64,000 nucleotides of DNA from assembly GCA_022788225.1 (NCBI GenBank), contig JALEVO010000159.1:54428-118427 (forward strand). The letters run 5' to 3'. Position numbers and translations under genes: made by a program. The notes beneath the pieces are model-generated. The model was given only the letters and a program-made list of their open reading frames with translations. It searched no databases and was not told the origin of the DNA. The DNA is from Oscillospiraceae bacterium. GTDB lineage: Bacteria > Bacillota > Clostridia > Oscillospirales > Ruminococcaceae. Each line of letters starts with the position of its first letter. The stretch's first letter is position 1. Below are positions 25,371-58,857 of this stretch, in pieces.

Positions 25371-25862
25371 GTATTTTCATTGCCTGCACAAAGAAACAAA
25401 TGCACTTTTGGTGTTATGTACTTTCTTGTCTTGCAACAAGAAAGTACCAAAGAAATGCACCCACTCATGCGCCGTGGGCGGCTTGTGCGGCATAAAGCCG
25501 CAAATCACTGGGATTTTGTTTTCTGACTAAACTGCTTTGTTTAAACTGACTACACCATAATTGCAGCTAAAGTCGTTCTAATAAAGCAAAGCCTTGGAAA
25601 ACTTTAACTGCCCTTAAATTAGCTATGCAGTTAAAGTTTTCTTTCCGCTTTAAAAGCGTTAGCAAATGATTTTTGCAGGTATGAGTGAACAAGTATGTAC
25701 CGACCCAGCTGTCTTATACTCACAAGATAACCCGTCTTTGCCGCCTCCGTGCGGCATGGCAGTCCGGCGGCAGCCGGTGCATTTCTTTGGTTCGTTTCTT
25801 TGGGCAAGCAAAGAAATGAACAATCCCTACAGCTTTTGTTTCTTTTCACCGAAAAGAAAAAC
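25371..25862 (+). mobile_element. ~490 bp TIR element, copy 1 (MITE/REPIN-like)
   Basis: Core shared with copies at 35.9, 38.5, 55.7 and 58.4 kb; TIR CAAAGAAATGCACC / GGTGCATTTCTTTG. Confidence 0.75.
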
Positions 25863-25922
25863 AGCATACTCAAAAGAGTATGCTGCCACATTTTATTAAT
25901 CTGATTGCTTAAATTTCAAAAA

Positions 25923-26183
25923 TCAGCCTGCTGCGTTCAGCTTCTTTGCGAGCTGTGACTTCTTTCTTGCAGCACAGTTCTTGTGCATAAGACCCTTAGC
26001 TGCTGCCTGGTCAACCTTCTTTATAGCAACTCTGATTGCCTCTGCCTTGTCAGCTGAATTAGCCTCGCAAGCAGCACCGGCATTCTTGAGAACAGTTTTA
26101 AGATTTGATTTTCTTGACTTGTTGGCTGCTGCCTTTGTCTTGTTAACTTTAACTCTCTTCATTGCGGATTTGATATTTGGCAT
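25923..26183 (-). CDS. rpsT: 30S ribosomal protein S20
   Basis: MPNIKSAMKRVK...MHKNCAARKKSQL. Confidence 0.97.
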   Translation of the reverse strand: MPNIKSAMKRVKVNKTKAAANKSRKSNLKTVLKNAGAACEANSADKAEAIRVAIKKVDQAAAKGLMHKNCAARKKSQLAKKLNAAG

Positions 26184-26372
26184 TTTACTGCACCTCCTTA
26201 AAATTGAAATATCCTGAATTATTATTTACAGAATTTATCTTAATAATTCAAAAAATTCAGCATAATATAAAAACAGCGCAAGCTAAAAAAAGCAGGACAC
26301 GACCGCTGTTTTTTTAATCCGGACGTAATGAGCATCCGGACGGTGCATTTTACTGCACCAACGCTAATAATT

Positions 26373-26401
26373 ATTTTACCATTTTACAGCGCAAATTGCA
26401 A
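26373..26401 (-). promoter_or_regulatory. sigma-A promoter of rpsT
   Basis: TTGCAA-N17-TAAAAT with TGn on the minus strand. Confidence 0.6.
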
Positions 26402-26498
26402 TAGGCAAAATCAAAACAAAATCACGAAATTAAAGCGTTGATTTAAAGCATAATGCACAATAAAATCAAAAATTCACAAAAAAGGAGCTGAATTACTT

Positions 26499-27347
26499 AT
26501 GAATATCAGAACCGACCTTGCCCTTGAAAGCGTCAATGCCGCCAGAATAAGCGAGGGCATAACCCAGACAACACGGGGAAAGGCTTTTAAAATAACGGAA
26601 ATCAAAATCGCCGAGGACAGGCACGGCGAAAAAATCGGCAAGAAAAAGGGCAGATATATTACTCTTGAGGGTGAACCGCTGGGGCGTTTTTCCGATACGT
26701 TCAAGGAAATGGCGGCGGAGCTGTCACAGGAGCTTTCAGAGCTTCTCCCCGACGGTCCCGCACTTGTTATCGGTCTTGGAAACAACGATATCACCCCCGA
26801 CGCTCTGGGTCCTCTGACTGCGTCAAGAGTTCTTGCGACACGCCACCTCAAAGAGGAACTGGGAGACGAGGACGAGTTTCTCACCAGTCTGCGGCAGGTG
26901 AGCGTTATGGCAAGCGGTGTTCTGGGGCAGACTGGTATTGAAACCGCCGAAATTATCGAGGGGCTTCTTGAAAAGCTTAAACCCGCCTCCATAATCGCCG
27001 TTGACGCCCTCGCCTGTTCAGACGTAAGCCGTCTTGGCACAACAATTCAGCTTTCCGATTCCGGTATTTCTCCCGGCAGCGGCGTTGCCAACAGGCGCAG
27101 GGAAATTTCAAAGGATTCTATCGGAATACCTGTTATTGCCGCCGGAGTTCCAACAGTTGTGGATATGTACACGATTGTTCAGAACATTACCGGCAGGCGT
27201 GTGACAAACCAGATTCCCAACATGATGGTTACGCCGAGAGATGTGGACAGGCTTATTGAACGTTCCTCTGCCCTTATGGCTATGGGAATTAACCTTGCCC
27301 TCCACCCTGAACTAACCTTTGAAGATGTTGAAAACATTATGTTTTAA
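26499..27347 (+). CDS. gpr: GPR spore germination protease
   Basis: IRTDLALE, VIGLGNNDITPDALGP, IIAVDALA, TIQLSDSGISPGSGV.NRR, GVPTVVD, MMVTPRDVD. Confidence 0.93.
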   Translation: MNIRTDLALESVNAARISEGITQTTRGKAFKITEIKIAEDRHGEKIGKKKGRYITLEGEPLGRFSDTFKEMAAELSQELSELLPDGPALVIGLGNNDITPDALGPLTASRVLATRHLKEELGDEDEFLTSLRQVSVMASGVLGQTGIETAEIIEGLLEKLKPASIIAVDALACSDVSRLGTTIQLSDSGISPGSGVANRRREISKDSIGIPVIAAGVPTVVDMYTIVQNITGRRVTNQIPNMMVTPRDVDRLIERSSALMAMGINLALHPELTFEDVENIMF

Positions 27348-27584
27348 ACTTGCTTTTCAACAGCCTGTTGAAAACGGTGTTGAATTACTTTTGGAAACAC
27401 TCGTCAAAAGTCGTGTTTTTCCCATGAATATGTGGGTTAAGCGACTGTTAAATTGTTGAAAAACTTTCAAGAGTGAAACAATGTGTTTTTTTACTGAAAA
27501 TTTGTTGAAAATGCCTATTGACGTCATAAATCTCTGAAACTCTATGGATAAATCAGCGGTTTATGGAAAAACTAAAGGCAGAAC

Positions 27585-27738
27585 CACATAATTATTGTCG
27601 TGCAGATGCGACGTCAGATTTTTCGTCAGATTGCACGAAAAGCTTGCAGGCATACTGCCGTATGTCAAGAGTTTTTTGTGTGATATGACGGAAAATCTGC
27701 AAGCAGATGTGCGGCAAAGGCGTAAGCCGCTAATTGTG
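27585..27738 (+). repeat. ~155 bp palindromic repeat, copy A
   Basis: CACATAATTATTGTCG...GCAGGCATACTGCCGTATGTCAAG...TAATTGTG; homologous to 49074-49230. Confidence 0.75.
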
Positions 27739-27795
27739 GGGTTATGCCTATGTATTGCAGAAAGTGCAATAGCAAAAACGAAAGGATTGAATTCT

Positions 27796-28143
27796 ATGAA
27801 AAAAACTCTTCCTATACTCTTTTCCCTCGCTCTCGTATGCTGTTCATTCACAGCCTGTGGAAACAGAGAAAAAAACAACAATAACAAAAATGCGACAGAA
27901 GCGCCTACAACAGTACACGAAACCACAAATCCGGCAACGGAGAAGGCAACAGAAGCAACTGTTAACAATAACGGCAACAACAACGAATCTGCCACTGACA
28001 AGGGCGGTATCGTCGGAAACATCGTAACTGACGCTGAAGGTATCGTTGACGACCTCGTTTCAACTGGTGAGGACATCGTTGACGATGCAGGATCAGTTGT
28101 TGAGGGCGTCGGTGACGCAATTACAGGTACTGACAATCACTAA
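27796..28143 (+). CDS. Small lipoprotein of unknown function
   Basis: MKK + hydrophobic core + FTAC lipobox; N/T-rich linker; acidic 11-mer repeats. Confidence 0.7.
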   Translation: MKKTLPILFSLALVCCSFTACGNREKNNNNKNATEAPTTVHETTNPATEKATEATVNNNGNNNESATDKGGIVGNIVTDAEGIVDDLVSTGEDIVDDAGSVVEGVGDAITGTDNH

Positions 28144-28148
28144 GAAAT

Positions 28149-28178
28149 AAACAGGGTACTTTCAAGGTACCCTGTTTT
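28149..28178 (+). terminator. Intrinsic terminator
   Basis: AAACAGGGTAC/GTACCCTGTTTT. Confidence 0.75.
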
Positions 28179-28204
28179 CATGTTACATACTAATCGAAAA
28201 TAAT

Positions 28205-28227
28205 GGGCGACCAAGGGCCGCCCCTAC
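28205..28227 (-). repeat. GTAG-type REP palindrome
   Basis: Reverse complement GTAGGGGCGGCCCTTGGTCGCCC. Confidence 0.65.
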
Positions 28228-28287
28228 ATATTGCTCGCTGGAACATTAAAAAAACCTTTTCAACTGCCCCTGCACATTTTATCAATA

Positions 28288-29706
28288 TTACCTCTTGAGA
28301 ATCTTCCTTATCGTCGCCATAAGCTCCGGGAAGTTGACTGCTGTTATAAACACCGTTATTCCAACCTGCATGAGCACATAGTAAGGCGGCTGATTGATGG
28401 CAAGCAGTGACATTCCCATAAGAATTGACAGGTTCATGACTGTTTTTGTGTGGTCAACCTTAAAGTAAATATACCTTCTTGCGTCCACAACTCGTATAAG
28501 ATAGCAGGCAATGTAGCTTATAAAACTTGCCGCAACTGCGCCGTGTACACCGAATTTTTTTATCAGAATCACATTCAGCACAATGTTCAGCACCATAGAA
28601 ACAAGGCTGGTCCAGAATGAATTCTGGGTATGCTTTGAAGCTGTGTAAATACTGCTGAAAAACAGGTTAAAGCACATCATCAGCACCGACAGAACAAGCA
28701 CAGGAGTGTATATATAAGCCTGTGAATACTCGGGGTGATTATTATAATTCAGGAGTATTCTCGAAACCGGCTGGACAAGCAGTATCAGAAAGGCCGAAGC
28801 GATATACATTATAGACTGGTATGCCGAATATATGGTGGCGTAAAACTTCCCCTCACCCTGATTTCCGTGTTCAGTTATTGCGGACATATTCCACGCCTGA
28901 AAGAAAATCGTTGAAACCATTGAAATAAGGTTCGGAATCTTTGATGCGGCTGTGTATAGTCCCACTGCGGTATCTCCTGTTTGTCCGGCGGGTCCGTCAA
29001 CATATTTTATGAGAATACGGTCGGAAAAGCCGGTTATAGTCCACATTACAGCCGTCGGGATAAGGGGCAGAGAAAATCTCACCATTGAATGAATCATGTC
29101 CTTATCAGCATAGGCAAGGCTGAAATATTTTCCCAGTCCCGCCATTTTCCAGAGGAAAAGTCCGGAGCAGAAATCGGAAAGAATCATTGCTATCATAAAG
29201 CCTTTAATTCCGAGGTCAAGCTTTGATATGAAAATTATATTGAATATAAAAAGCGAAAGGGTCGCAAGCATACCGTCAAAGGCGTAAAGCTTTACATAGC
29301 CCTTTGCCCTTATGAAGTTTGCACAGGTAAGGCGGAAAACCGATGTACACACATAGAGCATGAGCCATGGGGTATAGCCTTTGATGAACGGTATCAGCGA
29401 AAACAGCGGCGACAGCAGGAGCATTATGAACAAGCCGAAAAGCTGTACCACGACTGATGTTGAAAAGACCTGTCGTTTGTCGTATTCCTTGTCAAGTCCG
29501 AACCGGAGGATGGCGTCTGACATTGAAAACGAGAAAACCGGTATCATAAACGCTGCTGACGCTTCAATAAGTTCCTTGCTGCCGAGGATATCCGCACCCA
29601 TGTAAGTCGTATATAGACGGGTAAGGAAAAGGGTCAGTATCTTCGAGCCGAAAGTTCCAATTGCAAAGACAACTGTGTTAAAGGCAAGATTTTTATATTT
29701 ATTCAT
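28288..29706 (-). CDS. Polysaccharide flippase (Wzx / MOP superfamily)
   Basis: NTVVFAIGTFGSKILTLFLTRLYT start, many TM helices, VGLYTAASK, NIVLNVILIKKFGVHGAVAAS. Confidence 0.85.
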   Translation of the reverse strand: MNKYKNLAFNTVVFAIGTFGSKILTLFLTRLYTTYMGADILGSKELIEASAAFMIPVFSFSMSDAILRFGLDKEYDKRQVFSTSVVVQLFGLFIMLLLSPLFSLIPFIKGYTPWLMLYVCTSVFRLTCANFIRAKGYVKLYAFDGMLATLSLFIFNIIFISKLDLGIKGFMIAMILSDFCSGLFLWKMAGLGKYFSLAYADKDMIHSMVRFSLPLIPTAVMWTITGFSDRILIKYVDGPAGQTGDTAVGLYTAASKIPNLISMVSTIFFQAWNMSAITEHGNQGEGKFYATIYSAYQSIMYIASAFLILLVQPVSRILLNYNNHPEYSQAYIYTPVLVLSVLMMCFNLFFSSIYTASKHTQNSFWTSLVSMVLNIVLNVILIKKFGVHGAVAASFISYIACYLIRVVDARRYIYFKVDHTKTVMNLSILMGMSLLAINQPPYYVLMQVGITVFITAVNFPELMATIRKILKR

Positions 29707-29807
29707 GTTTTAGCTCCAATTTTATCTTTGATTATGCATATATAGTTATATTATAACAGATTTTCTGAAAAATTCAAATAGATTTCTGACTTTTTTCTTT
29801 GCAAAAT

Positions 29808-29834
29808 AAAAAAGCCTTCCATAAGGAAGGCTTT
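29808..29834 (-). terminator. Intrinsic terminator
   Basis: AAAGCCTTCC/GGAAGGCTTT with U-tract on minus strand. Confidence 0.7.
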
Positions 29835-29846
29835 ATTTATAGAAAA

Positions 29847-30731
29847 TTATTTCTTTCTTGATCTCATTGCAACTGCTGCTGCGCCGATACCTGCTGTAAT
29901 AACAAGTCCTGCAACTGCTGCTGCAACACCAGCATCACCTGTTGATGCTGAATTTGTCTGTGTGGAATTGCCAAGAACTGCACCGCCGCCGCTTGTTGAA
30001 CCGTTGTTGGTTGAATTGTTTGTGTTGTTATTCTGCTGCTGTGCCTGTGTCTGTGTGTTGTTGTTATTGTTATTGGCAGGAGCCTGTGTTGGTGTCTGTG
30101 TATCTGTGCCGTTATCAGAAGCCTGTGTTGGTGTCTGAGTATTGTTATCAGGAGTTACAGCTGCACCGCCTGTTGTAACCTTGTCAACCTTGATTGTAAT
30201 ACCTGTGTTTGCAGGCTTGCCGTCTGATGCATAGTTAAATGCATTGATATTAGTTGTAAGAATAAGGCAGAGAATAGTATCAGCTGGTTTTGCAAGCTTA
30301 AATGATGCAGTATACTGTCCATCGCCTGTAATTGCAACCTGGTCATTTGTTACAGTATTCTTTGAAGGGTCAGAAGTACCCCAGTAATTGTCTTCACCGA
30401 TGCTGCCTACAAGTTCTGCATAATAAGGGTCACCGTTGGAACCGTCTTCATTTACATTGCAGCCGCCTTTCAGACCGGAAATTGTAAATGTTACATTAAT
30501 TGATTCAGAGAATGAACCAGACTTTGCAACGTCAGCTGTTTCCTTTCCCTTTGACCATTCGTTGAGAAGGTTCAGACGAAGTGTAGAACCGTCATCGTTT
30601 ATTGCAAATGCATTTTCGGAAGGACCTGTGTAAGTGAGTTCTGTTTCAGCCGCACTTACAGTCATTGCAACTGTTGAAAATGCTGCTACTGCGCAAGCTG
30701 CTGCTGCAGCAAAAAACTTCTTAAAATTCAT
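29847..30731 (-). CDS. Secreted, sortase-anchored surface protein (non-catalytic module + N/T/Q linker + SASTGDAG sorting signal)
   Basis: Signal peptide MNFKKFFAAAAAC; C-terminus NSASTGDAG-hydrophobic-RSRKK; ATG 30731 after GAGGTG. Confidence 0.8.
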   Translation of the reverse strand: MNFKKFFAAAAACAVAAFSTVAMTVSAAETELTYTGPSENAFAINDDGSTLRLNLLNEWSKGKETADVAKSGSFSESINVTFTISGLKGGCNVNEDGSNGDPYYAELVGSIGEDNYWGTSDPSKNTVTNDQVAITGDGQYTASFKLAKPADTILCLILTTNINAFNYASDGKPANTGITIKVDKVTTGGAAVTPDNNTQTPTQASDNGTDTQTPTQAPANNNNNNTQTQAQQQNNNTNNSTNNGSTSGGGAVLGNSTQTNSASTGDAGVAAAVAGLVITAGIGAAAVAMRSRKK

Positions 30732-30879
30732 ATATAACACCTCTGTAAATTATTTTTTTAAGCGGTATGAACACTCTCGCCGCCGCTTTTACAGCAATAC
30801 CGGCAACTGCAATTGCAATGCCTGCATCATTTGTTTAAGGAACATTGAATATGCTGCCGGTTTGCCGTTTGTGGTGATT
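30721..30879 (-). pseudogene. Relic sortase sorting-signal sequence in frame with the upstream dockerin gene
   Basis: After TAA 30880: NHHKRQTGSIFNVP*TNDAGIAIAVAGIAVKAAARVFIPLKK... Confidence 0.6.
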
Positions 30880-32124
30880 TTATTTTCCCATAATGATATT
30901 GCATACTGCAATAGCATCGTAAAGGTTAACAACGCTGTCGCCGTTCATATCGCCAACTGTAAGCTGTTCTTCATCAAGTGTGATCATCTTCATCATGTAC
31001 TTTGCAATTTCAATTGCGTCATAGAGGTTAACAACACCGTCTCTTGTTACATCGCCTTTATCGTAATTGGAAACGTTTGATGTACCTTCTGCGCCTGTAC
31101 CTGAAACTGTGAATACAACCTTAAGACTTTCTGTAATAGCTGTGTCAGCTGCGAGGTCAGCAACGCCTGTACCAGCCCAGCCATCAATAAGGTAAATTCT
31201 TGTGCATGCAGCACCGCCTTCTGTGTATGCGAGGTTGATTGCTTCTGCGCTTGTTGTGTAGCCTTCAACTTCCTTACCGTCAACATAAACGCCGTCTACC
31301 TTAACAGCAAGGTCAGCGTACTTGTCGCTTGAAAGTCCGGGAATCTGAACTGCGAGGAATTCGATTTTCTCTGTTCCGCCGTCTGTTACTTTCCATTCAA
31401 CTTCATACTGTGCGTCACCGTTTACATTAGCTACCTTTGAGCCTTCTGTAACTTCATCTGCGCCCCATACGCTTGTTGCACCGATAGAGCCAATGATTGC
31501 AGCTGTTCCGATTGTTCCCTCCGGAACGTCAGGATCTGTTATAGAGCCTTCAGCCATTGTTGTAACGCTGTCAATGGAGAATGTGATGCCTGAATCAGCC
31601 GGCTTACCTGTTTCTGTGTACTGATATACGTTGATATTTGTTGAAAGAATCAGGCAGAGGATTGTGTCAGCAGGGTCATTGAGCAGGAATTCTGCTGTGT
31701 ATGTGCCATCGCCTTCAATTGCAACTGATTTGTTTTCAACTGTGTTGTCATCAGCTGTCGGACCCCAGTATGAGTCAGTTCCGATTGAACCTGAAAGGAA
31801 TGCCTCATATGGTGTTTCTGTACCGTCTTCTGCGATATTTGCAGAATTGTCGCCAAGACCGTCAACTGTAAATGTAACAGAAATCTTTTCCTGGAAAGCA
31901 CCAGTATTTGCAAGGTCAGTAGTTTCCTGTCCCCATGTATTATAAAGGTTCATACGCAGTGATACGCCATCATTTTCAAGGTTAAAAGCGTTTTCAGAAG
32001 GACCTGTGTATTCGATTTCCTTTTCTACCATGTCAACCGCAGATACACTAACTGCTGAGAACATTGCTGTTGCTGCAAGAGCTGCGGCTGAAACAGCAGC
32101 GATTATTCTCTTAAAATTCTTCAT
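30880..32124 (-). CDS. Secreted dockerin protein with two related non-catalytic modules; paralogue of 29847-30731
   Basis: YTGPSENAF...PADTILCLIL.TNIN shared with neighbour; dockerin GDVTRDGVVNLYDAI...GDMNGDSVVNLYDAI; ATG 32124 after GAGGTG. Confidence 0.82.
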   Translation of the reverse strand: MKNFKRIIAAVSAAALAATAMFSAVSVSAVDMVEKEIEYTGPSENAFNLENDGVSLRMNLYNTWGQETTDLANTGAFQEKISVTFTVDGLGDNSANIAEDGTETPYEAFLSGSIGTDSYWGPTADDNTVENKSVAIEGDGTYTAEFLLNDPADTILCLILSTNINVYQYTETGKPADSGITFSIDSVTTMAEGSITDPDVPEGTIGTAAIIGSIGATSVWGADEVTEGSKVANVNGDAQYEVEWKVTDGGTEKIEFLAVQIPGLSSDKYADLAVKVDGVYVDGKEVEGYTTSAEAINLAYTEGGAACTRIYLIDGWAGTGVADLAADTAITESLKVVFTVSGTGAEGTSNVSNYDKGDVTRDGVVNLYDAIEIAKYMMKMITLDEEQLTVGDMNGDSVVNLYDAIAVCNIIMGK

Positions 32125-35920: not shown

Positions 35921-36401
35921 TTTCTTTAATGCAAAGAAACAAAGCGTAAGGGTTAACTTTCTTTGTCTGCACAAAGAAAGTTACAAAGAAATGCACCCAC
36001 TCATACGCCGTGGGCGGCTTGTGCAGCTAAAGCTGCAAAGAAAGGTTATCTTGTATATAAAGTCAGCTGGGTCGGTACATACTTGTTCACGTTCGCTTGC
36101 AATCCTTACTCGCTAAAGTTTTTAAAGCGGAAAGAAAACATTAACTGCAAGGCAATTTTAAAGGCAGTTTAAGTTTTCTTTGGCTTTATTAAATTAGAAC
36201 GACTTTAGCCGCAATTATGATGTAGTCAGTTTAAACAACGCAGTTTAGTTCATTAACAATATTACAGTGATTTGCGGCTTTATGCCGCACAAGCCGCCCA
36301 CGGCGATTGAGTGTGTGCCCTTTCTTTGGTTCGTTTCTTTGGGCAGGCAAAGAAATGAACAATACCCCGCATTTGTTTCTTTGAGCGGTCAAAGAAAGTA
36401 C
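35921..36401 (-). mobile_element. ~480 bp TIR element, copy 2 (subtype with symmetric CACCCACTC ends)
   Basis: Reverse-complement match to copy 1 core; lies between pth and mfd. Confidence 0.75.
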
Positions 36402-36411
36402 ACCCCACAGC

Positions 36412-37038
36412 TTATGAATTAAACTTATTCATCGCCTCGTCAGTCTTTCCGCTGACCATCAGTTCCAGTGCCTCGCAGGCATTTTCAGCCGCTTTATCCA
36501 TCTTTTCCTTGTCCTCGTCACTGAAATGCCCCAGAACCCAGTCTGCAAGGTCATACTTAGGGTGCGGTTTCTTGCCTACCCCCATTTTTATCCTGGGGAA
36601 AGTGTCCTCCCCGGTAAGATAAATAATGCTCTTGATACCGTTGTGTCCGCCGTCACTGCCCTTGCGCCTAATGCGCAGTCTGCCCGGTTCAAGGGATATA
36701 TCGTCATATACTATTATAACGTGGTCAATATCCAGCTTGTAAAAGTTCATTGCCTCGGCTATAGCCTGACCGCTGTTATTCATATATGTCGTGGGTTTCA
36801 GCACCACGCAGTGCTTTCCCCCGATTGAAACGTCCCCGCAAAGGGACTTGAACTTCATCCTCTTTATATCAAAACCCAGCTTTTCCCCAAGCTTATCCAT
36901 AACCATGTATCCCGCATTATGCCTTGTACCCTCATACTGCAAACCGGGATTTCCCAGTCCGGCTATGATATACTCCACCGGACCGGACGGCAGATTCTCT
37001 TCCCTTGATATCTGCCTGAATTTGTCAAATATACTCAT
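36412..37038 (-). CDS. pth: Peptidyl-tRNA hydrolase
   Basis: GLGNPG..Y..TRHNAG, KPTTYMNNSG, YDDISL, GGHNGIKS. Confidence 0.96.
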   Translation of the reverse strand: MSIFDKFRQISREENLPSGPVEYIIAGLGNPGLQYEGTRHNAGYMVMDKLGEKLGFDIKRMKFKSLCGDVSIGGKHCVVLKPTTYMNNSGQAIAEAMNFYKLDIDHVIIVYDDISLEPGRLRIRRKGSDGGHNGIKSIIYLTGEDTFPRIKMGVGKKPHPKYDLADWVLGHFSDEDKEKMDKAAENACEALELMVSGKTDEAMNKFNS

Positions 37039-37043
37039 TTATA

Positions 37044-38423
37044 TCACGCTTTTTCCAGTCTTTTTTTCAGTTTTCTAAGGCTGTAGCCCTCTTTTATCTG
37101 GACTGTTCCCCTGTCAATTGCAAGAGCATAGTCGGGAACATCTTTGGTAACGGTAGTGCCTGCGGCGGTGTAAACGCCCTTTCCAAGCTTGACAGGTGCT
37201 ACAAGGTTTGTGTTGCAGCCGATAAAGCAGTTATCACCGATTTCACAGCGGCTCTTGACAATGCCGTCGTAGTTTACGGTAACTGTTCCGCAGCCGAAGT
37301 TTACCTTTTTGCCGACGTCGGAGTCACCAACATAGGTAAGGTGAGCAACCGCAGTACCCTCGCCGATTGTGGAATTTTTGATTTCAACAAAGTCGCCGAT
37401 TTTAACACCGCTCCTGATATGGCTGCCAGGTCTGATGTGTACCCACGGACCGATTTTAACCCCTGCGTCAATTGTTGACTTGAACGCCTGAACGTAATTT
37501 AAGCTTACGCCGTCCTTGATGTCACAGTCGTCTATAATGCAGTTAGGACCGATAAGGCAGTTTTTGCCTATAACTGTCTTTCCTCTCAGATGTGTACCTG
37601 CCATTATCTCAGTACCTGCGCCAATCTCAACATCACGTCCGATAACAACTCCGTCAATGCAGTTGAACTCAACGCCGTTTTCAAGGTGCTTTTCGATAAC
37701 AGCCATTCTTGCCACTGTGTTAAGCTCCAGCAGACCCTTTCTGTCGTTTGCGCCCAGAACAACGTCCGGATTTTCGGAAATGTATGCGTTTACTCGTCTG
37801 CCCTTGTTAAGTGCAATGAAAACGCTGTCTGTCAGGTAGTATTCGCCCTGTGAGTTGTTTGTGGTAAGCTCTCCTAAGTACTCCATAAGGTCGGCTGTAT
37901 TGAACCAGTAAGCGCCGGAATTGATTTCCTTTATCTCTTTCTGCGTAATTGTTGCATCCTTTTCCTCAACGATTGAAGTGATACCGTTTTCACCTCTTAT
38001 GATTCTGCCGTAGCCCTTTGGATTCTCGGAAACGGCTGTGATTACTGTGATTGAGTTACCCTCGTTTTCATGCATTTCAAGGGATTTCTTGATTGTTTCA
38101 GAATCAATAAACGGTGCATCGCCGCAGAGTACCAGCGTATTTCCGCCGCCGTTTTCTTTCATAAAAGGTACTGCCTGCATAACCGCATGACCAGTACCCA
38201 GTCTTTCGCTCTGGAGGACTGTTTCATAGCGTCCGTTTAAGTACTCGTCTATCATCTCGGCCATAAAGCCCTTTACTATGCAGAGCTTTTCAATGCCTGC
38301 TCCATCGCACGCCTTGATTACCCATTCCAGCATAGGCTCGCCAAGTACCTTGAACATTGGCTTTGGTATATCAGCTTTCATTCTCTTTCCCTGACCGCCA
38401 GCCAGTATTACAGCATTATTCAT
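37044..38423 (-). CDS. glmU: Bifunctional UDP-GlcNAc pyrophosphorylase / glucosamine-1-P N-acetyltransferase
   Basis: LAGGQGKRMK, QSERLGTGHAV, EINSG, QGEYYLTD, hexapeptide repeats, HLTYVGDS. Confidence 0.96.
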   Translation of the reverse strand: MNNAVILAGGQGKRMKADIPKPMFKVLGEPMLEWVIKACDGAGIEKLCIVKGFMAEMIDEYLNGRYETVLQSERLGTGHAVMQAVPFMKENGGGNTLVLCGDAPFIDSETIKKSLEMHENEGNSITVITAVSENPKGYGRIIRGENGITSIVEEKDATITQKEIKEINSGAYWFNTADLMEYLGELTTNNSQGEYYLTDSVFIALNKGRRVNAYISENPDVVLGANDRKGLLELNTVARMAVIEKHLENGVEFNCIDGVVIGRDVEIGAGTEIMAGTHLRGKTVIGKNCLIGPNCIIDDCDIKDGVSLNYVQAFKSTIDAGVKIGPWVHIRPGSHIRSGVKIGDFVEIKNSTIGEGTAVAHLTYVGDSDVGKKVNFGCGTVTVNYDGIVKSRCEIGDNCFIGCNTNLVAPVKLGKGVYTAAGTTVTKDVPDYALAIDRGTVQIKEGYSLRKLKKRLEKA

Positions 38424-38471
38424 TCTTAAAATTCCTCTTTTCCTTTATACTAAAGATTTTTTAATCTGTTT

Positions 38472-38927
38472 TTGTGTTATGTTCATTTGTGTTATGTTCA
38501 TTTCTTTGCTTGCACAAAGAAACGAACCAAAGAAATGCACCGGCTGCCGCCGGACTGCTATGCCGCACAGGGCGGCAAAGACAGGTTATCTTGTAAGCAT
38601 AAGACAGCTGGGTCGGTACATACTTGTTCACTCTTGCTTGCAGACCTTACTCGCTAACTCTTTTAAAGCGGAAAGAAAACATTAACTGCATAGTTATTTT
38701 AAGGGCAGTTAAATTTTTCTATGGCTTTACTTTCTTAGAACGACTTTAGCCGCAATTATGGTGTAGACAGTTTAAACAAAGCAGTTTAGTTCAATAACAA
38801 TATTGCAGTGATTTGCGGCGCAAGCCGCACAAGCCGCCCACGGCGTTTGAGTGGGTGCCCTTTCTTTGGTTCGTTTCTTTGGGCAAGCAAAGAAATGAAC
38901 ATATTCCATGCTTTCAAACAAAGAAAC
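38472..38927 (-). mobile_element. ~450 bp TIR element, copy 3
   Basis: GTTCATTTCTTTGCTTGCACAAAGAAACGAACCAAAGAAATGCACC (38496) inverted to ...TTTCTTTGGTTCGTTTCTTTGGGCAAGCAAAGAAATGAAC (38900). Confidence 0.78.
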
Positions 38928-45555: not shown

Positions 45556-45941
45556 AATTAGCCCTTCTTTCAAAATTTAAGGGCAATCTCATTGTTTGGG
45601 ACGTATGATTTCTGAATCGGACACTTTTATTGTTCAAAACAGACATCATAACCTTTGTGCAACTGGCAATCATACCGTTTCTGATGAAAAAACGGGTTAG
45701 ACCCTTAGCTTTGCGTCCTTACTTTTCAATAAGTTTGCCAAAATTGTGTTTTTAAAACTGGTTTATATTCGTATGGTTTGCTTTAGCAACTTTAAGCATT
45801 AATGCCTTTGCTATGGTTATAGTATACCACCATTTTCCTGCAATGTCAACTGTTTATGGCGTTTTCTCCATTTTGTTATATTTACAGCGGAACGAATTGT
45901 ATACATTGCCTAAATCGTTTAAATATCCTGTAACCTTTTAG

Positions 45942-52727: not shown

Positions 52728-52760
52728 ATAAAAATTCCGCCGACTATTGCCGGCAGATAA

Positions 52761-52836
52761 TGGAGCTGGTGGACGGACTCGAACCCCCGACCTGCTGATT
52801 ACAAATCAGCTGCTCTACCAACTGAGCTACACCAGC
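52761..52836 (-). tRNA. tRNA-Thr (TGT)
   Basis: GCTGGTGTAGCTCAGTTGGTAGAGCAGCTGATT-TGT-AATCAG...GGTTCGAGTCC...CCA. Confidence 0.96.
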
Positions 52837-52858
52837 ATCTTGTTCAGAATGCTTAATT

Positions 52859-52887
52859 ATTATATCACAGTTTTCTAAGCTTGTCAA
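52859..52887 (-). promoter_or_regulatory. Consensus sigma-A promoter for tRNA-Thr/Tyr
   Basis: TTGACA-N17-TATAAT with TGn. Confidence 0.85.
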
Positions 52888-52935
52888 GTCTTTTTTAAAG
52901 ATTTTTTCAAGTTTTTTTAAACTGCTTAAAGAAAA

Positions 52936-53012
52936 TGGTCGAGGCGACAGGACTTGAACCTGCGGCATCTTGGTCCCAAACCAAGCACTCTACCAAACTG
53001 AGTTACGCCTCG
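52936..53012 (-). tRNA. tRNA-Pro (TGG)
   Basis: CGAGGCGTAACTCAGTTTGGTAGAGTGCTTGGTT-TGG-GACCAAG...GGTTCAAGTCC...CCA. Confidence 0.96.
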
Positions 53013-53053
53013 TTCATTCTCGTTTATGCTGTCTTTCGTCAAACAGCTTTATT

Positions 53054-53082
53054 ATTATACACGTTTCTTGCTGAAATGTCAA
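53054..53082 (-). promoter_or_regulatory. Consensus sigma-A promoter for tRNA-Pro
   Basis: TTGACA-N17-TATAAT. Confidence 0.85.
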
Positions 53083-53148
53083 GCGCTTTTTTGCGATTTG
53101 TCATGTTGCACAAAATTTAATGTTTCATTTGTGCAATATGCTTTATTT

Positions 53149-53217
53149 GTAGGGGCGAGCATTGCTCGCCCGTGACTGTGAATACGTTTTTTACGGGCGA
53201 CCAATGGTCGCCCCTAC
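53149..53217. repeat. Inverted REP doublet (REPIN-like)
   Basis: GTAGGGGCGAGCATTGCTCGCCCGT ... ACGGGCGACCAATGGTCGCCCCTAC. Confidence 0.8.
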
Positions 53218-53250
53218 AATTGATTTTCAAAATATAAAAAATGTCAAGAA

Positions 53251-55011
53251 CTATTCTATCTCATAAAGCTTTGCAGTTCCGTCAATTAACTTTTCGGGCA
53301 TGAATCCTGAGCCGATTTCGTTTTCAACTGCAAAGGCACAGTACCCGGTTTCAATCTCACTTTCGGGTACTATATAGCCGTAAGTTATGGTCTTGGTTTC
53401 ATAGGGTGCAAAGGTGTATTTGTAGAGACTCTTTCCGCCGTTTTCCGTGTATGAAATGTATTCGGGGTCAGACGGAAGCAGGGTCCAGTCACTGCCTGCT
53501 CTTAAATCCTTTGAAACCATTTCAAAACCGCAGAAATACATATCCTTTTCCACATTTATGGTGTTCTCAACCTCATAGGTCACAAGCAGCAGCTTTGCGT
53601 CATCTATGCCGCCGCACAGGTCTTCATAACGCTGTATATACTCAGAATCAATGTCATAATCAGAAATTTCTCCGACTTCACTTCCGGTTATCCTTACATT
53701 TAACAGGTAGTTGTCGTAAAGCAGCGGTATAGTCGTACCAACAGGTTCGTACACAGCCTTTTCCATTGCCTCGTCATACTGCTCCTGCAATACGCTTTCA
53801 TAATCCGCCTCTACTTCTTCCATAGGCGGATTTAAGATTGGCTCACCAAAGTCCGGTTCAACAATATGTTTTTCATCAAAACCTTTCTCTATCGGTACTT
53901 CAAATACGTAATCTACAGGGAAACCGTCCTGATCAAGTCTGAACACTTCAACATAAAGTGCTGTAGCTGTTTTAAGCGGTGTACGATATAAAGAACCGAT
54001 AATCTGTTCACCGTAATCGTCACTTAATGCACCGTAACACTCGAGTTCATTTCCATCTTGGTCTTTTACTGTGAAATCATGGGTGCTGTAGTCGAGTCCG
54101 CTTATATAAACAGTTGTGTCAAAAGGAGTAACAACAACGCTTTCAAGAGTAATACCGCTCTGCGTTTCGTTTACCTCATAGGTTCTGTTATTGCTTGAGT
54201 CCGGCGTCAGCTTTCTTTCAAATACAAAGTCGCCAGATAAAACTCCGGTAGTTTCCGGCACATAAGTACCAGACATATCATCATTCGGTACCCAGTTCTG
54301 AACCAGTCCGTTTACGCCCTGAATGTCATAGATATGGATTTGCAGTTCTGAATCTTCTCTGATGTCAAGGTATGAATAGTAAAGACGGGTGTAATAATTG
54401 CCGTCCACGTCGGCTGAAAAGCCTATATACAGTTCCTCAGTTTCTTCAACAACGTCCTTGCCGTCAATTTTTACGGTACACTTTGCCTGAACTCCAGTGA
54501 GATTTTTAAGCTGTTCATCCTTTGGTGTAAGCGCAAGGTAGACTGCAAGGTGGCTTTCATCGCAGTAAACATTCTGCATTTCAATGTCGGCGCACTGGCT
54601 GTCTTCATACCTTTTGTCCTCTAAAGCCAGAATATTCTCTTTTGTGCTTTCCTCTGTTGGGACAATACTGTCTGTTTCCTCGTTTACAGTACCGAATGCA
54701 CTCTTAATGGACGGTGTATACTCCCACACAGCAGGTATTGTAATTCCGGCAAGTACGGCAACACAAGCCGCAATCGCCCCGAATCTTTTGAAAGCAATCC
54801 TCTTTTTCCCCTTATTATCCTGTTCGCAGTTTTCAAAAACCACTTCTTCCGGCTTATTTTTTTCTGAAACCGCAGTATAACTGCTGACTTCTGCTCTATT
54901 TCTATTCTTTTGTTCACATTCTTTATATATTATCTCATAAGCCTCATTGCATTTTCTGCTGACAATTTCCGGAACTGCTGTATTATCAAAAAAATCCTTT
55001 TCGTTTTTCAT
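53251..55011 (-). CDS. Membrane anti-sigma factor-like protein (DUF4179-like) with large extracellular region
   Basis: Overlaps sigma gene by 4 nt; single TM helix after KKRIAFKR; acidic extracellular part. Confidence 0.7.
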   Translation of the reverse strand: MKNEKDFFDNTAVPEIVSRKCNEAYEIIYKECEQKNRNRAEVSSYTAVSEKNKPEEVVFENCEQDNKGKKRIAFKRFGAIAACVAVLAGITIPAVWEYTPSIKSAFGTVNEETDSIVPTEESTKENILALEDKRYEDSQCADIEMQNVYCDESHLAVYLALTPKDEQLKNLTGVQAKCTVKIDGKDVVEETEELYIGFSADVDGNYYTRLYYSYLDIREDSELQIHIYDIQGVNGLVQNWVPNDDMSGTYVPETTGVLSGDFVFERKLTPDSSNNRTYEVNETQSGITLESVVVTPFDTTVYISGLDYSTHDFTVKDQDGNELECYGALSDDYGEQIIGSLYRTPLKTATALYVEVFRLDQDGFPVDYVFEVPIEKGFDEKHIVEPDFGEPILNPPMEEVEADYESVLQEQYDEAMEKAVYEPVGTTIPLLYDNYLLNVRITGSEVGEISDYDIDSEYIQRYEDLCGGIDDAKLLLVTYEVENTINVEKDMYFCGFEMVSKDLRAGSDWTLLPSDPEYISYTENGGKSLYKYTFAPYETKTITYGYIVPESEIETGYCAFAVENEIGSGFMPEKLIDGTAKLYEIE

Positions 55012-55529
55012 ACCGAAACAGCCTCCCTGTCTGTGTAAATCATTTTAAACTCCGCCCGCCCTCTTGAAAGTCTGGTCTTGACAGTGTTTTCCTTCATATC
55101 AAGCAGTTCTGAAATCTCCTTTATGGTCATGCCCTGAGTGTAATAAAGGGTGAGGATAAGGCGGTAGTTATCGCTTAAACCCTCAAAGCTTTCCTTTATA
55201 TCCCTGTCTGAAAGGCTTGTATCAGTGCCTGTGTCAACGCCGTCATAGCTTTCGATGTATACTGTATTGCCGTTTTTCCGGATAATGTCCTTACAGCAGT
55301 TTATCAGTATCCTTGTAAGCCACGTTTTGAAGTACTTATCCTGTCTTAGCTTGCCGATATTCTTCCAGCAGGACAAAACAGCGTCCTGTATTGCGTCCGC
55401 TGCGTCAGCGTCATTGTGGAGTATGGAAACTGCTGTTTTGTACATTGCGGACTTGTTCTGCTCCATAAGCTCCACAAAAGCGTCCGGATCGCCGTTTTTC
55501 GCCCTTTTTATGAGCGTATCAGCTTTCAT
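55008..55529 (-). CDS. ECF RNA polymerase sigma factor
   Basis: DAADAIQD, FKTWLTRILINCCKD, YYTQGMTIKEISELL...TVKTRLSRGR. Confidence 0.92.
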   Translation of the reverse strand: MKADTLIKRAKNGDPDAFVELMEQNKSAMYKTAVSILHNDADAADAIQDAVLSCWKNIGKLRQDKYFKTWLTRILINCCKDIIRKNGNTVYIESYDGVDTGTDTSLSDRDIKESFEGLSDNYRLILTLYYTQGMTIKEISELLDMKENTVKTRLSRGRAEFKMIYTDREAVSV

Positions 55530-55575
55530 ATTCAACGCCTCCTTTTTTCCGAACCAAAGCTTTGTTTCTGTACAT

Positions 55576-55604
55576 TAGACGTAAAAGCCTTCGGTATGGT
55601 TTCA
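55576..55604 (-). promoter_or_regulatory. ECF-type promoter (probable autoregulation)
   Basis: TGAAAC-N17-CGTCTA about 45 nt upstream of the sigma ATG. Confidence 0.7.
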
Positions 55605-55638
55605 GCTTTTTTGAAAAAAGCTTTGCAAAAACTATTTT

Positions 55639-56160
55639 TTTGCCTTTACAAGGCGGTGGGTATTGTTCATTTCTTTGCTTGCCCTTTGATTTTGCCTTTA
55701 CAAGGCGGTGGGTTATGTTCATTTCTTTGCTTGCCCAAAGAAACGAACCAAAGAAATGCACCCACTCAAACGCCGTGGGCGGCTTGTGCGGCTTGCGCCG
55801 CAAATCACTGCAATATTGTTAATGAACTAAACTGCGTTGTTTAAACTGACTACATCATGATTGCGGTTAAAGTCGTTCTAATCTAATAAAGCCAGAAAAA
55901 ACTTTAACTGCCTTTAATAGCTATGCGGTTAAAGTTTTCTTTCCGCTTTAAAAACGTTAGCGCAGAAAGTTTGAAATTATGAGTCAGCAAGTATGTACCG
56001 ACCCAGCTGTCTTATATTTACAAGATAACCCGTCTTTGCAGCTCCCGCTGCACAGCCGCCCACGGCGTCTGAGTGGGTGTCCTTTCTTTGGGACTTTCTT
56101 TGGACAAGCAAAGAAAGTACAATAAAACACGCATTTGTTTCTTGTTGCGGTACAAGAAAA
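55639..56160 (+). mobile_element. ~520 bp TIR element, copy 4 (symmetric-end subtype, duplicated left end)
   Basis: Core shared with other copies; 46-nt left end repeated at 55639 and 55691. Confidence 0.75.
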
Positions 56161-56223
56161 TGTATCGGACATACCATATTCCTCATATCATTTAAATGAT
56201 AAGCAATAAACAAGGAGGAAAAT

Positions 56224-58350
56224 ATGGGACTAACTTCACAGTCAACGGGAAAAAGAGCCAGTCAGGGCAATATTCCCGAAAAAAATAACGGAGAATTTCT
56301 TATTGCACTTGCCGGAAATCCCAACGTTGGGAAATCCACAGTTTTCAACGCTCTCACCGGCATGAAACAGCACACCGGAAACTGGGCGGGCAAGACCGTT
56401 TCAAATGCCGCCGGGCGGTGTGAACACAAGGGGAAAAAGTACATTCTCGCCGACCTCCCCGGTACATACTCCCTTATGGCACACTCCGCCGAGGAAGAAG
56501 CCGCACGGGATTTCATCTGCTTTGGTATGCCGGACGCTGTTATTGTAGTGTGCGACGGTACTTGTCTTGAAAGAAATCTTAATCTGCTGCTCCAGACGCT
56601 GGAAATTACGCCTAAGACAGTGCTGTGTATAAATCTGCTTGACGAGGCTGAAAAAAAGGGTATCAGCATTGATACGCAAAGGCTTTCAGAAATTCTGGGA
56701 ATACCAGTTGTGGGCGTCACCGCAAGAGATGAAAAGGGGCTTGACCAGCTTATGGACGCAGTACAGCAGGTTATTGAAAATCCCCCAGACAGCGCATATC
56801 TGCCCTCATACAGCCGTCAGCTTGAAGAGGAGATATCAAGAGTCGCCGCAAAGCTTGAACCCTTTACATCCGGCAGACTGCCTGCAAGGTGGACGGCGAT
56901 AAAGCTTATTGACCGGAACGAAAAGCTGACCGACTCCATAAACAGCTTTCTGGGCAACGATATCGAGGAGGAGATTTTCGGTACACTTAATGTCTGCCGT
57001 GAGGCACTGGCACGGAAAAGCTACAATCCCCAGAGTATCAGCGACGAGATTATTTCCTGCATAATCCACTCGGCAGAGGAAATAGCCGGGGCGGCGGTGT
57101 CTTTTAAAAACGACAGTTACTACGAGCGTGACCGGAAAATTGACCGCATTCTCACAAGCCGTGTTTTCGGCATTCCCATAATGCTGGGTATTCTCGGCAT
57201 GGTTTTCTGGATAACCATAGTCGGGGCAAACTACCCCTCAAAGCTTTTGTCGGACGGTCTTTTTTATCTGGGCGGAAAAATAGAGGATTTCCTCAATTTC
57301 GTGAACTGTCACCCCACTGTCACTGACCTTGCCGTCAACGGCGTTTACCGTGTGCTTGCGTGGGTGGTTTCGGTAATGCTGCCCCCTATGGCGATTTTCT
57401 TTCCGCTTTTCACGCTCCTTGAAGACTTAGGATATCTCCCACGTGCGGCGTTTAACCTCGACCGCCAGTTCCGCCGTGCCAACGCCTGCGGCAAACAGGC
57501 TCTTACAATGTGCATGGGACTTGGCTGCAATGCCGCCGGAGTTACAGGCTGCCGCATTATTGATTCCCCCAGAGAACGGCTTATAGCCATACTTACAAAC
57601 AATTTCGTCCCCTGCAACGGGCGTTTCCCCTCTCTTATCTCCCTTATCACCATGTTTTTTACTGCCTCTGTTACCGGCATAGGCGGCTCTGTCACCTCTG
57701 CGCTTATTTTACTTGCGGTCATAGTGGCAGGAGTTGGGGCGACTCTGCTGGCGTCGTGGATTTTATCTGTTACCGTCCTAAAGGGTGTACCCTCCGCTTT
57801 CACCCTTGAACTTCCCCCCTACCGCAAACCGCAGATAGGCAAGGTAATAGTCCGCTCCATATTCGACAGGACTATTTTCGTTTTAGGCAGAGCCTGTGCA
57901 GTTGCGGCTCCGGCAGGACTTGTGATATGGCTGCTGGCAAACACGTCGGTATGCGGAAACACCATACTCATGCACCTTGCCTCGTTCCTTGACGCTCCGG
58001 GCAGGTTTCTGGGCATGGACGGTGAAATCCTGCTGGCGTTCATACTGGGTTTTCCGGCGAATGAAATCGTGATACCCATAATTCTGATGTCCTACACCTC
58101 TGCCGGAATGCTGATTGAAACTGAAAACACCGACGTTATGCGCACCATCCTTACGGACAACGGCTGGACGTGGGTGACCGCCCTGTGCACCATGATTTTT
58201 ATACTTTTCCATTTCCCCTGTTCCACAACCTGTCTTACCATAAAAAAAGAAACGGGCAGTCTGAGATGGACAGCCGCCGCTATAATTCTGCCTACTGCCT
58301 TTGGCGTTGTGCTATGCGCACTCATAAGCAATATTGCAAGGCTGATATAG
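56224..58350 (+). CDS. feoB: Ferrous iron transporter B
   Basis: GNPNVGKST, GNWAGKTV, DLPGTYS, NLLDE, MGLGCNAA, PCNGR, FPANEIV, HFPCSTT. Confidence 0.93.
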   Translation: MGLTSQSTGKRASQGNIPEKNNGEFLIALAGNPNVGKSTVFNALTGMKQHTGNWAGKTVSNAAGRCEHKGKKYILADLPGTYSLMAHSAEEEAARDFICFGMPDAVIVVCDGTCLERNLNLLLQTLEITPKTVLCINLLDEAEKKGISIDTQRLSEILGIPVVGVTARDEKGLDQLMDAVQQVIENPPDSAYLPSYSRQLEEEISRVAAKLEPFTSGRLPARWTAIKLIDRNEKLTDSINSFLGNDIEEEIFGTLNVCREALARKSYNPQSISDEIISCIIHSAEEIAGAAVSFKNDSYYERDRKIDRILTSRVFGIPIMLGILGMVFWITIVGANYPSKLLSDGLFYLGGKIEDFLNFVNCHPTVTDLAVNGVYRVLAWVVSVMLPPMAIFFPLFTLLEDLGYLPRAAFNLDRQFRRANACGKQALTMCMGLGCNAAGVTGCRIIDSPRERLIAILTNNFVPCNGRFPSLISLITMFFTASVTGIGGSVTSALILLAVIVAGVGATLLASWILSVTVLKGVPSAFTLELPPYRKPQIGKVIVRSIFDRTIFVLGRACAVAAPAGLVIWLLANTSVCGNTILMHLASFLDAPGRFLGMDGEILLAFILGFPANEIVIPIILMSYTSAGMLIETENTDVMRTILTDNGWTWVTALCTMIFILFHFPCSTTCLTIKKETGSLRWTAAAIILPTAFGVVLCALISNIARLI

Positions 58351-58359
58351 AAATTTTCT

Positions 58360-58857
58360 TTTCGGCAAAAAGAAACAAAAGCGGTGGTTTTGCCTTTTGC
58401 AAGGCAGGGGGTGTTCATTTCTTTGCTTGCACAAAGAAACGAACCAAAGAAATGCACCCACTCAGACGCCGCAGGGGGCTTGTGCGGCTTGCGCCGCAAA
58501 TCACTGCAATATCGTTATTAAACTAAACTGCGTTGTTTAAACTGATTACTTCATAATTGCAGATAAAGTCGTTCTAATAAAGCAAAGCCATAGAAAACTA
58601 TAACTGCCTTTAAATAGGCTTAGTAGTTAATGTTTTCTTTCCGCTTTAAAAATGTTAGCGCAGGAAGTCTGCAATTATGAGTGAACAAGTATGTACCGAC
58701 CCAGCTGTCTTATGCTGACAAGATAAACCGTCTTTGCCGCCACCGTGCGGCATAGCAGTCCGGCGGCAGCCGGTGCATTTCTTTGGTACTTTCTTGTTGC
58801 AGGACAAGAAAGTACAGTAAACCTGCGTTCGTTTCTTTGGGCAAGCAAAGAAAGTAC
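58360..58857 (+). mobile_element. ~500 bp TIR element, copy 5
   Basis: Core shared with other copies; same orientation as copy 4. Confidence 0.75.

Follow-up and report, generated by a model that had tools for sequence, protein, structure and literature searches.

The window analysed here, a stretch of 64,000 nucleotides from contig JALEVO010000159.1 (positions 54,428 to 118,427, forward strand) of the Oscillospiraceae bacterium assembly GCA_022788225.1, harbors five copies of an intergenic repeat with inverted ends, numbered 1 to 5 in order of position. A first-pass annotation, made from the letters of the window alone, had taken them for an undescribed non-autonomous mobile element or a multicopy structured RNA. 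Our analysis led us to read the repeats, with a probability of roughly 55%, as a selfish, non-autonomous interspersed DNA element resembling miniature inverted-repeat transposable elements (MITEs), in which the ends, A/T-rich modules of the BoxC/PIT/TMECO type, are the functional part and the core is cargo. The non-autonomous, non-coding character and the patchy distribution within the genus were both borne out: six-frame translation of the element consensus revealed stops throughout all six frames and thus no coding capacity, and presence/absence polymorphism was found between strains. To our knowledge, BoxC/PIT/TM repeats have gone without explanation since the 1990s.

Structure of the end module

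To describe the ends, we used an alignment of 16 copies with their flanks from the window's own assembly (G000; 2.27 Mb, 159 contigs, 91% complete, with the window forming part of contig C100) and an alignment of 27 copies from two species; all genomes compared in this study are draft assemblies. The inner inverted repeat of about 46 nt has the form CTTTCTTTG-N6-CAAAGAAA-N4-5-CAAAGAAA followed by a tail. The end module can be written as (G)TTCATTTCTTTG-N6-CAAAGAAACGAAC-CAAAGAAA-TGCAC and consists of a 10-13 bp hairpin, (G)TTCATTTCTTTG-N6-CAAAGAAACGAAC, a spacer of 4-5 nt, a second purine block, CAAAGAAA, and a tail of 4-5 nt, the second purine block having the same sequence as the 3′ arm of the hairpin. 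All ten end modules of the window, like every other locus compared, show the arrangement CTTTCTTTG-N6-CAAAGAAA(G)-N4-5-CAAAGAAA(G), and the inverted ends of about 45 bp proposed in the first-pass annotation were accordingly located, as inner modules, in all five copies.

The 6-nt hairpin loop was then compared with the bases that follow the second purine block, using 83 distinct loop/tail pairs with 54 distinct loops. The mean longest run of Watson-Crick complementarity between loop and tail was 3.63, as against 2.35 for permuted pairings (standard deviation 0.086, highest 2.67), a permutation figure that overstates independence because the loop and tail sequences are related to one another. 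Examples of such pairs are CTTGCC/GGGCA, CTTCGC/GGCGA, CTGCTG/CAGC, CTCCTG/CAGG and TGCGTA/ACGCA. Loop and tail thus co-vary, which implied that the tail pairs with the loop and sets the second purine block along the hairpin. The co-variation supports a predicted fold of the module as an H-type pseudoknot or a clamped triplex of a single strand, and the module can fold only as single-stranded DNA or as RNA. It also constitutes evolutionary evidence of selection on the single-stranded fold. A purine-motif triplex needs mirror symmetry; the AAAGAAA motif is mirror-symmetric and both purine blocks are identical.

Hairpins and core

Outside the ends of many copies, we observed an optional GCCTTTACAAGGC hairpin together with a further TTTCTTTG..CAAAGAAAC hairpin, which stretch the inverted repeat to about 130 bp. 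The stacked end hairpins of the first-pass annotation (TTTCTTT..AAAGAAA) are real, but they are optional and variable among copies and no fixed part of the element. Inside each end lie two small GC hairpins, which occur in two alternative versions of common layout and different sequence: type A, with CCCAC..GTGGG and GCGGC..GCCGC, and type B, with CCGGC..GCCGG and GCCGC..GCGGC. The ends are combined as a mosaic in G000, A-B in 10 copies, A-A′ in five and B′-B in one. Each element holds 6-10 CAAAGAAA boxes, and its stems alternate between TTTCTTTG/CAAAGAAA and TTTCTTGT/ACAAGAAA, between CCCAC/GTGGG and TCTGC/GCAGA, and between GCGGC and GCAGC.

The core stem at 25597-25611/25627-25641 is perfect in copy 1, as had been noted earlier (DNA fold −13.6 kcal/mol, z −5.3). 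Its structure-preserving nature also held up, since double changes preserve the pairing among the 26 copies compared from two species, with 14 AT and five TA at pair 194/283 and 14 CG and 10 TA at pair 204/273. The GCGGC/GCAGC hairpins co-vary likewise (at pair 84/94, 14 copies have GC, 11 have AT and one has CG). Co-variation is seen in the stems as well as in the loop-tail pairs. The annotation had further held that wobbles in the core stem are tolerated on the plus strand only. Both wobbles exist, but they do not establish strand specificity, because the alignment folds equally well on the two strands (−59.7 vs. −61.7, with column shuffles at −4.1, standard deviation 2.6). In the core stem, G.T outnumbers A.C by 22 to 7, many of these being inherited together, and a strand-specific RNA reading of the wobbles may be suggested by the sequences. 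As the end module is common across phyla, where it belongs to elements bearing other cargo, the centre of about 300 nt is non-coding cargo particular to this species pair and not a defining part of the element.

Replacement of cores and allelic differences between strains

Filled and empty sites were compared, as had been proposed, and it was this comparison that revealed the presence/absence polymorphism. At the rpsT site (copy 1), eight metagenome contigs encoding an identical S20 protein carry a solo hairpin, TTTTTCTTTGTGCAGGCAAAGAAATGAACA, right after the rpsT terminator, two metagenome contigs carry the filled allele, and the outgroup G007 has neither hairpin nor element. The solo hairpin amounts to the left arm of one element hairpin fused with the right-hand portion of a second one. 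G000 shares the copy 1 and copy 3 sites with its sister species G001 (Pth 97% and S20 99% identical), with flanks about 97% identical and cores 74% and 69% identical, respectively; random between-genome pairs of G000 and G001 cores show a mean identity of 69%. Moreover, the core at the copy 3 site is inverted in G001 relative to G000, between conserved ends. Since the site-matched cores are no closer than random between-genome pairs, the cores have been replaced since the two genomes split. In one strain, the element occupying the copy 1 site shows 92% identity with copy 1 and 91% with three paralogues, next to flanks of 97% identity.

At the pth-mfd, gyrB-upstream and gyrB-downstream sites, GC-rich REPIN-like repeats are found instead of the element in G001 or in another strain (locus L239 included), and short remnants of the element termini are still visible there. 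The modules are thus the boundaries of exchangeable units, whose cores are replaced or inverted, whose relatives enclose other cargo and which leave solo hairpins. For the other sites, the exact-protein look-ups for pth and glmU returned contigs that all break inside the element, and no empty site was obtained; the exact proteins of feoB and its upstream gene are not on record in the look-up; and the contigs retrieved with accA break at copy 5, one of them differing in arrangement. Separately, the GC-rich hairpins of the GGGCGACCAATGGTCGCCC type, which often form inverted pairs like REPINs, number 48 in G000, and repeats of this type are present in the window at 53153-53213, 23395 and 28205.

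Relatives of the element and wider distribution of the module

The whole element is also found in G001, where at least 11 copies share 70-81% identity with the consensus; partial copies occur in G003, and most other congeners have none. In other genomes the ends enclose different contents. In G015, three XRE/Cro-type helix-turn-helix (HTH) genes are enclosed by ends whose inverted repeats measure about 180 bp; in G010 a divergent HTH pair lies between the same ends; and other non-coding repeats in G013 and G150 are built on the same end module. The XRE/Cro-type HTH genes, which are small and occur singly or in divergent pairs, are located at L035 (G015:C10:68712-71770) and at L034/L039 (G010:C64).

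A cross-taxon scan with the exact module pattern, covering one genome per species and requiring exact blocks, so that sequence variants are under-sampled, found the module in at least 120 genome stretches and 11 viral contigs. The pattern read backwards gave 0 matches in every genome searched. The matches listed include Burkholderiales, Neisseriaceae, Xanthomonadales, other Gammaproteobacteria and Desulfuromonadales, the Burkholderiales carriers including Caballeronia, Paraburkholderia, Burkholderia, Ralstonia, Herbaspirillum and others; further carriers among them are Negativicutes (Selenomonas, Quinella), Bacteroidota and other Clostridia. The modules often form inverted pairs with a separation of 400-630 bp. 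Also among the matches listed, 19 inverted module pairs enclose 358-593 bp, an arrangement typical of Burkholderiales, where the inner sequences are often long palindromes and solo modules occur too. Open reading frames (ORFs) within the Burkholderiales inner sequences look spurious and gave no Pfam match. The A/T-rich module is near-invariant from gut Clostridia at 43% G+C to Burkholderiales elements of 58-66% G+C, which points to specific recognition or a specific fold and not to mere base composition.

Two further observations concern these distant carriers. In the IMG/VR contigs L171, L174, L176 and L180, which are Bacteroidota-like phage contigs, the module stands after a terminator-like hairpin, near genes that we take, from the look of their sequence, to be terminase-like and portal-like. 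In Caballeronia, the outer arm of related elements, and no other part of them, (L051 6058-6175 and 6713-6820; L054) matches RF02421 (Bp1_Cand684_SIPHT) at or near threshold, with a score of 48.6 bits against a threshold of 44, and this Rfam entry may describe part of a repeat element.

Comparison with known repeat systems

No Rfam match was found for the window elements and three other copies at the gathering threshold and at E below 1, and a literature search by sequence string returned unrelated papers only. The element is nevertheless not wholly undescribed, because its end module has the published BoxC/PIT/TMECO architecture. TMECO (= BoxC = PIT) was given as CCCTCNCCC-N3-6-GGGNGAGGG-N3-GGGNGAGGG (Holder et al., 2015, PMC4666352; see also Hoyne and Maher, 2000, as cited there). 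According to that paper, TMECO is always intergenic, shows no strand bias, sometimes forms inverted pairs, varies between strains and clusters near the origin in E. coli K-12, and its function and any link to mobile elements are not known. Our module shares with it the succession of a 9-nt pyrimidine block, a loop of 3-6 nt and a 9-nt purine block that is repeated identically after a short loop, as well as the purely intergenic location, the lack of strand bias, the inverted pairs, the origin-proximal clustering and the strain variability. In contrast, the blocks here are A/T-rich (CTTTCTTTG/CAAAGAAAG) and not G/C-rich (CCCTCNCCC/GGGNGAGGG), the second loop has 4-5 nt rather than 3, the module stands at both ends of an element of 410-560 bp whose core is conserved, the loop-tail pairing is backed by co-variation (the part of PMC4666352 considered makes no mention of such pairing), and the host range takes in Bacillota, Bacteroidota and phage contigs. 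Judged by these sequences, the end module is an architectural relative of BoxC/PIT/TMECO and not a member of it.

The element resembles MITEs such as Correia/CREE of Neisseria, RUP of pneumococcus and bcr1 of the Bacillus cereus group in being small, non-coding, intergenic, multicopy and patchy, with inverted ends; MITEs are often co-transcribed with neighbor genes. Unlike them, it was found with neither a target duplication nor a parent insertion sequence with the same ends, its ends are structured modules common across phyla, and its cores are swapped at fixed sites. With REP/BIME and REPIN repeats it has in common the hairpin-based intergenic character, the inverted pairing, the mosaic modules and a presumed movement as single-stranded DNA. 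It differs from the REP/REPIN-RAYT system in that a RAYT/Y1 gene is missing from the host and from two further congeners that carry the element, and no GTAG-type 5′ signature is present; its unit is also much longer, and the separate GC-rich REPIN-like family co-exists with it and replaces it at some sites. Like integron attC sites, which are imperfect palindromes thought to act as folded single strands, the modules delimit variable cargo between conserved structured sites, and two-site recombination would leave one hybrid site, as in the solo-hairpin allele. However, neither an integron integrase nor an attI platform accompanies them, the sites are dispersed and not arrayed, and the sequence itself, not structure alone, is conserved, so the likeness to attC is one of working principle only.

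Clustering near the replication origin

Of the 17 copies in G000, 15 are on two contigs, C24 and C100, that together represent 8.7% of the assembly (P = 1.5e-14). C24 holds dnaA and the cumulative GC-skew minimum; its nine copies are no more than about 35 kb away in either direction and include the two that flank gyrB. A similar picture was obtained in G010, where 17 of 23 modules are on the 217-kb dnaA contig (P = 1.5e-14), with one element per spacer from dnaA to gyrA. On this contig pth lies 138 kb from dnaA, so that the region of the window is origin-proximal in this genus too. In G001, three copies are at most 32 kb from dnaA. In G150, G013 and G015 the modules are more dispersed, over many contigs. 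The elements are thus concentrated near oriC and inside housekeeping operons.

In three cases a gene unit is enclosed by two copies of the same direction, namely feoB (window 55639-58857), gyrB (C24:30587-33504) and glmU-pth (window 35921-38927). In relatives, gyrB and glmU-pth are housekeeping genes in conserved synteny, so this arrangement reflects insertion into operon-end spacers and not a composite transposon with feoB.

Search for a partner enzyme

The first-pass annotation had reported no transposase in the window; we likewise found none flanked by these ends in G000, although not all window ORFs were scanned. Of an autonomous partner sharing the ends, which it had proposed to look for, none was found in the draft assembly of G000 or in about 130 loci of other taxa among the matches listed, and no transposase-like ORF was seen between the ends at any inspected locus across phyla. 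An all-against-all comparison of ORFs within 2.5 kb of a module at 131 loci, aimed at a recurrent neighbor protein, yielded spurious overlaps and ordinary neighbors only; the phage loci have in common the genes that, judged from their sequence, resemble terminase and portal genes. Candidates for an autonomous element between distant inverted modules were also rejected, as L109 encloses a gabD-like housekeeping gene and L060 consists of solo modules around proB. The XRE regulators were discarded as a partner too: G000 holds a single distant homologue, about 3 kb from copy 3, without flanking modules.

Weighing of the MITE-like reading and a proposed mechanism

Several points weigh against the reading of the repeats as a MITE-like selfish element with BoxC/PIT/TMECO-type ends. 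Target-site duplications are absent at all sites compared: as the first-pass annotation had anticipated, comparison of the rpsT, pth-mfd, gyrB-upstream and gyrB-downstream sites with alleles or species lacking the element brought none to light, the only flank sequence in common being the hairpin arm TTTCTTT. The copies in G000 are merely 80-83% identical to one another, and recent transposition is not evident there. The rpsT solo hairpin can be read as a deletion between hairpin arms or an excision footprint, or else as a pre-existing target. Among candidate enzymes, PF04480 (DUF559) is absent from five element-bearing genomes (G000, G001, G013, G015 and G150), and PF01797 (Y1 transposase) is missing in G000, G010 and G013 and does not follow the distribution of the element in the genus; since the assembly is 91% complete, a partner gene could be missing from it. 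As to the fold, the second purine block stays unchanged when the hairpin arm becomes TTTCTTGT/ACAAGAAA, an observation that is no less compatible with a pseudoknot or a protein site than with a strict triplex. The pyrimidine arm in G000 is also predicted to pair with the second purine block, and given these two features a strict triplex is not proven. In published work, a stable TMECO triplex was not found in vivo (PMC4666352).

We propose that turnover would occur by recombination at the hairpin modules. Gene conversion would replace one copy by another, with the inverted ends serving as homology arms in either orientation, and deletion between hairpin arms would give rise to a solo hairpin. 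The first insertion could be brought about by an enzyme acting in trans or by replication-linked events on single-stranded DNA. The first-pass annotation had envisaged spread through a single-stranded DNA or RNA intermediate; a single-stranded DNA stage is plausible and fits the loop-tail co-variation and the clustering near the origin, while an RNA intermediate found no support.

A broader idea, which we put forward tentatively and regard as conceivable but on the unlikely side, is drawn by analogy with dispersed integron attC sites. The modules might be the recombination sites of an unrecognised mobility system that acts on folded single-stranded DNA during replication. Cassettes, whether non-coding cores or XRE regulators, would be installed, excised and exchanged at gene ends, preferentially near oriC, in several phyla and phages, by an enzyme or by a host replication or repair activity not yet linked to these repeats. 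Sites, alleles and culturable hosts (Caballeronia, Paraburkholderia and Ralstonia) are now at hand for tests of the mechanism.

Alternative explanations

Four other explanations were considered, all of them weighted lower than the MITE-like reading. The first, which we consider unlikely, is an RNA element that is co-transcribed in the 5′ or 3′ untranslated region of its neighbor and whose hairpins or pseudoknot modulate mRNA stability, processing or termination, a role of the kind suggested for REP/BIME, ERIC and Correia elements. In keeping with such a role, a promoter-like site and a start codon enclose copies 3 and 4, and a stop codon and a terminator-like hairpin enclose copies 2 and 5. 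The module geometry, with a first loop of 1-2 nt, a second stem of 4-5 bp and an A-rich third loop of 12-14 nt, is typical of RNA H-type pseudoknots, and both the excess of G.T over A.C in the core stem (22 vs. 7) and the match of the Caballeronia outer arm to a candidate small RNA (RF02421, 48.6 bits against a threshold of 44) point in the same direction. Orientation is divided on the matter: eight of the 10 copies between same-direction neighbors point along with them, a weak bias that is not significant, but copy 1, the copies on C86 and the copy at C24:60002 are oriented against their neighbors, and 31 solo modules show no orientation bias relative to genes. A bias relative to the direction of replication was considered too and rejected, being weak and not significant. 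In addition, the alignment folds of the two strands are equal, the core at the copy 3 site has opposite orientations in the two sister species, the inverted-repeat design puts the module on both strands, and promoter or terminator activity of PIT/TMECO was not found in published tests (PMC4666352). The multicopy RNA or RNA intermediate of the first-pass annotation is not supported here, given the equal folding of both strands, the unbiased solo modules and the weak gene-relative bias.

It is rather improbable that the repeats are an ordinary MITE derived from a DDE-type insertion sequence, with a transposase that binds the repeated CAAAGAAA boxes and a parent missing from incomplete assemblies. 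This explanation agrees with the element's size and inverted ends, its place between genes and its patchy occurrence; each end carries three 9-bp boxes, one inverted and two direct, as in multi-site transposase ends, and G150 and G013 contain many identical end modules, some at contig ends. Against these stand the lack of target duplications at the compared sites, the lack of any ORF with transposase features between the ends at the inspected loci across phyla, and an outer boundary that is modular and variable, without a fixed terminus. The loop-tail co-variation, moreover, indicates that selection acts on a folded single strand, something that a binding site in duplex DNA would not require.

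Still more doubtful is the explanation that the repeats are arrays of binding sites for a chromosome-organising or replication-linked protein, kept near oriC like parS or RacA sites, their repeat character being secondary. The strong clustering around dnaA in G000, G001 and G010 and the 6-10 CAAAGAAA boxes per element would suit such arrays, as would the origin-proximal location of TMECO in E. coli K-12 given in PMC4666352. This is countered by the dispersal of modules over many contigs in G150, G013 and G015, by the modules on phage contigs between genes that we assume, from their sequence, to be terminase-like and portal-like, by the loss in G001 of both gyrB-flanking copies, where the other repeat family is found instead, and by the loss of the rpsT-site copy in other strains.

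Finally, invertons flipped by a trans-acting recombinase, which would alter read-through or the output of promoters at many loci in the manner of the Bacteroides Mpi regulon with its many invertible loci and shared ends, appear very improbable, for although inverted repeats of at least 46 bp surround a segment of about 320 bp, many loci have common ends and the copy 3-site segment is opposite in G000 and G001 with ends and flanks conserved (a between-species difference), the two inverted cores are 69% identical, which indicates replacement and not a simple flip, no consistent promoter lies inside the core, copies are located downstream of genes as often as upstream, and no recombinase gene adjoins any copy.

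Copies in the window and in the assembly

Re-examination of the window sequence placed the five copies at the positions reported by the first-pass annotation, except that copy 5 now starts at 58354. The genome-wide BLAST search that had been proposed was run on the window's own assembly and identified 16 full copies and one half copy, all of them intergenic and none of these 17 elements at a contig end. Element length ranges from about 410 to 560 bp around a constant unit of about 410 bp that runs from TGTTCA to TGAACA, and the identity among copies inside one genome is 80-83%. A pattern scan of G000 showed that all 46 hairpins of the type TTTCTTKK-N4-8-MMAAGAAA are within 200 bp of the 17 elements.

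Copy 1 (25371..25862 including the outer hairpins, plus strand) is flanked by the rpsT terminator and the next gene's promoter, opposite in direction to both flanking genes. Its left end module at 25417..25461 (plus strand) comprises pyrimidine block, 6-nt loop, purine block, spacer, second purine block and tail, with the stem variant GTAC/GTAC; the right one, inverted, is at 25776..25821 (minus strand). The core hairpin GAAAACTTTAACTGC / GCAGTTAAAGTTTTC at 25597..25641 (plus strand) is supported by the DNA fold and by compensatory pairs. Copy 2 (35921..36401, minus strand; end modules at 35953-35997 and 36315-36360) has the pth stop codon on one side and, on the other, a terminator-like hairpin that lies upstream of mfd; both of its ends are of type A. 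Copy 3 (38472..38927, minus strand; end modules at 38496-38541 and 38855-38900) separates a promoter-like site (38976-38948) from a glmU-like gene. Copy 4 (55639..56160, plus strand; end modules at 55717-55762 and 56077-56121) is situated between a promoter-like site (55611-55638) and feoB, with an extra truncated end upstream. Copy 5 (58354..58857, plus strand) begins within a few bases of the feoB stop codon, downstream of it, and stops short of the convergent terminator hairpin of acpP (58889-58923); its end modules are at 58413-58458 and 58772-58816 and its outer hairpins at 58354-58375 and 58832-58853. Elsewhere in G000, a full copy at C24:62909-63561 is followed 57 bp later by a 3′ half copy of another subfamily, one that is common in G001, in a nested or truncated arrangement.

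Other features of the window

A c-di-GMP-I riboswitch (68 bits) was identified at 45655-45749 on the minus strand, upstream of a gene. Two direct repeats of two copies each, unrelated to the element, are present at 27575-27749/49065-49239 and at 2449-2572/2764-2887, with 85% and 73% identity, respectively.

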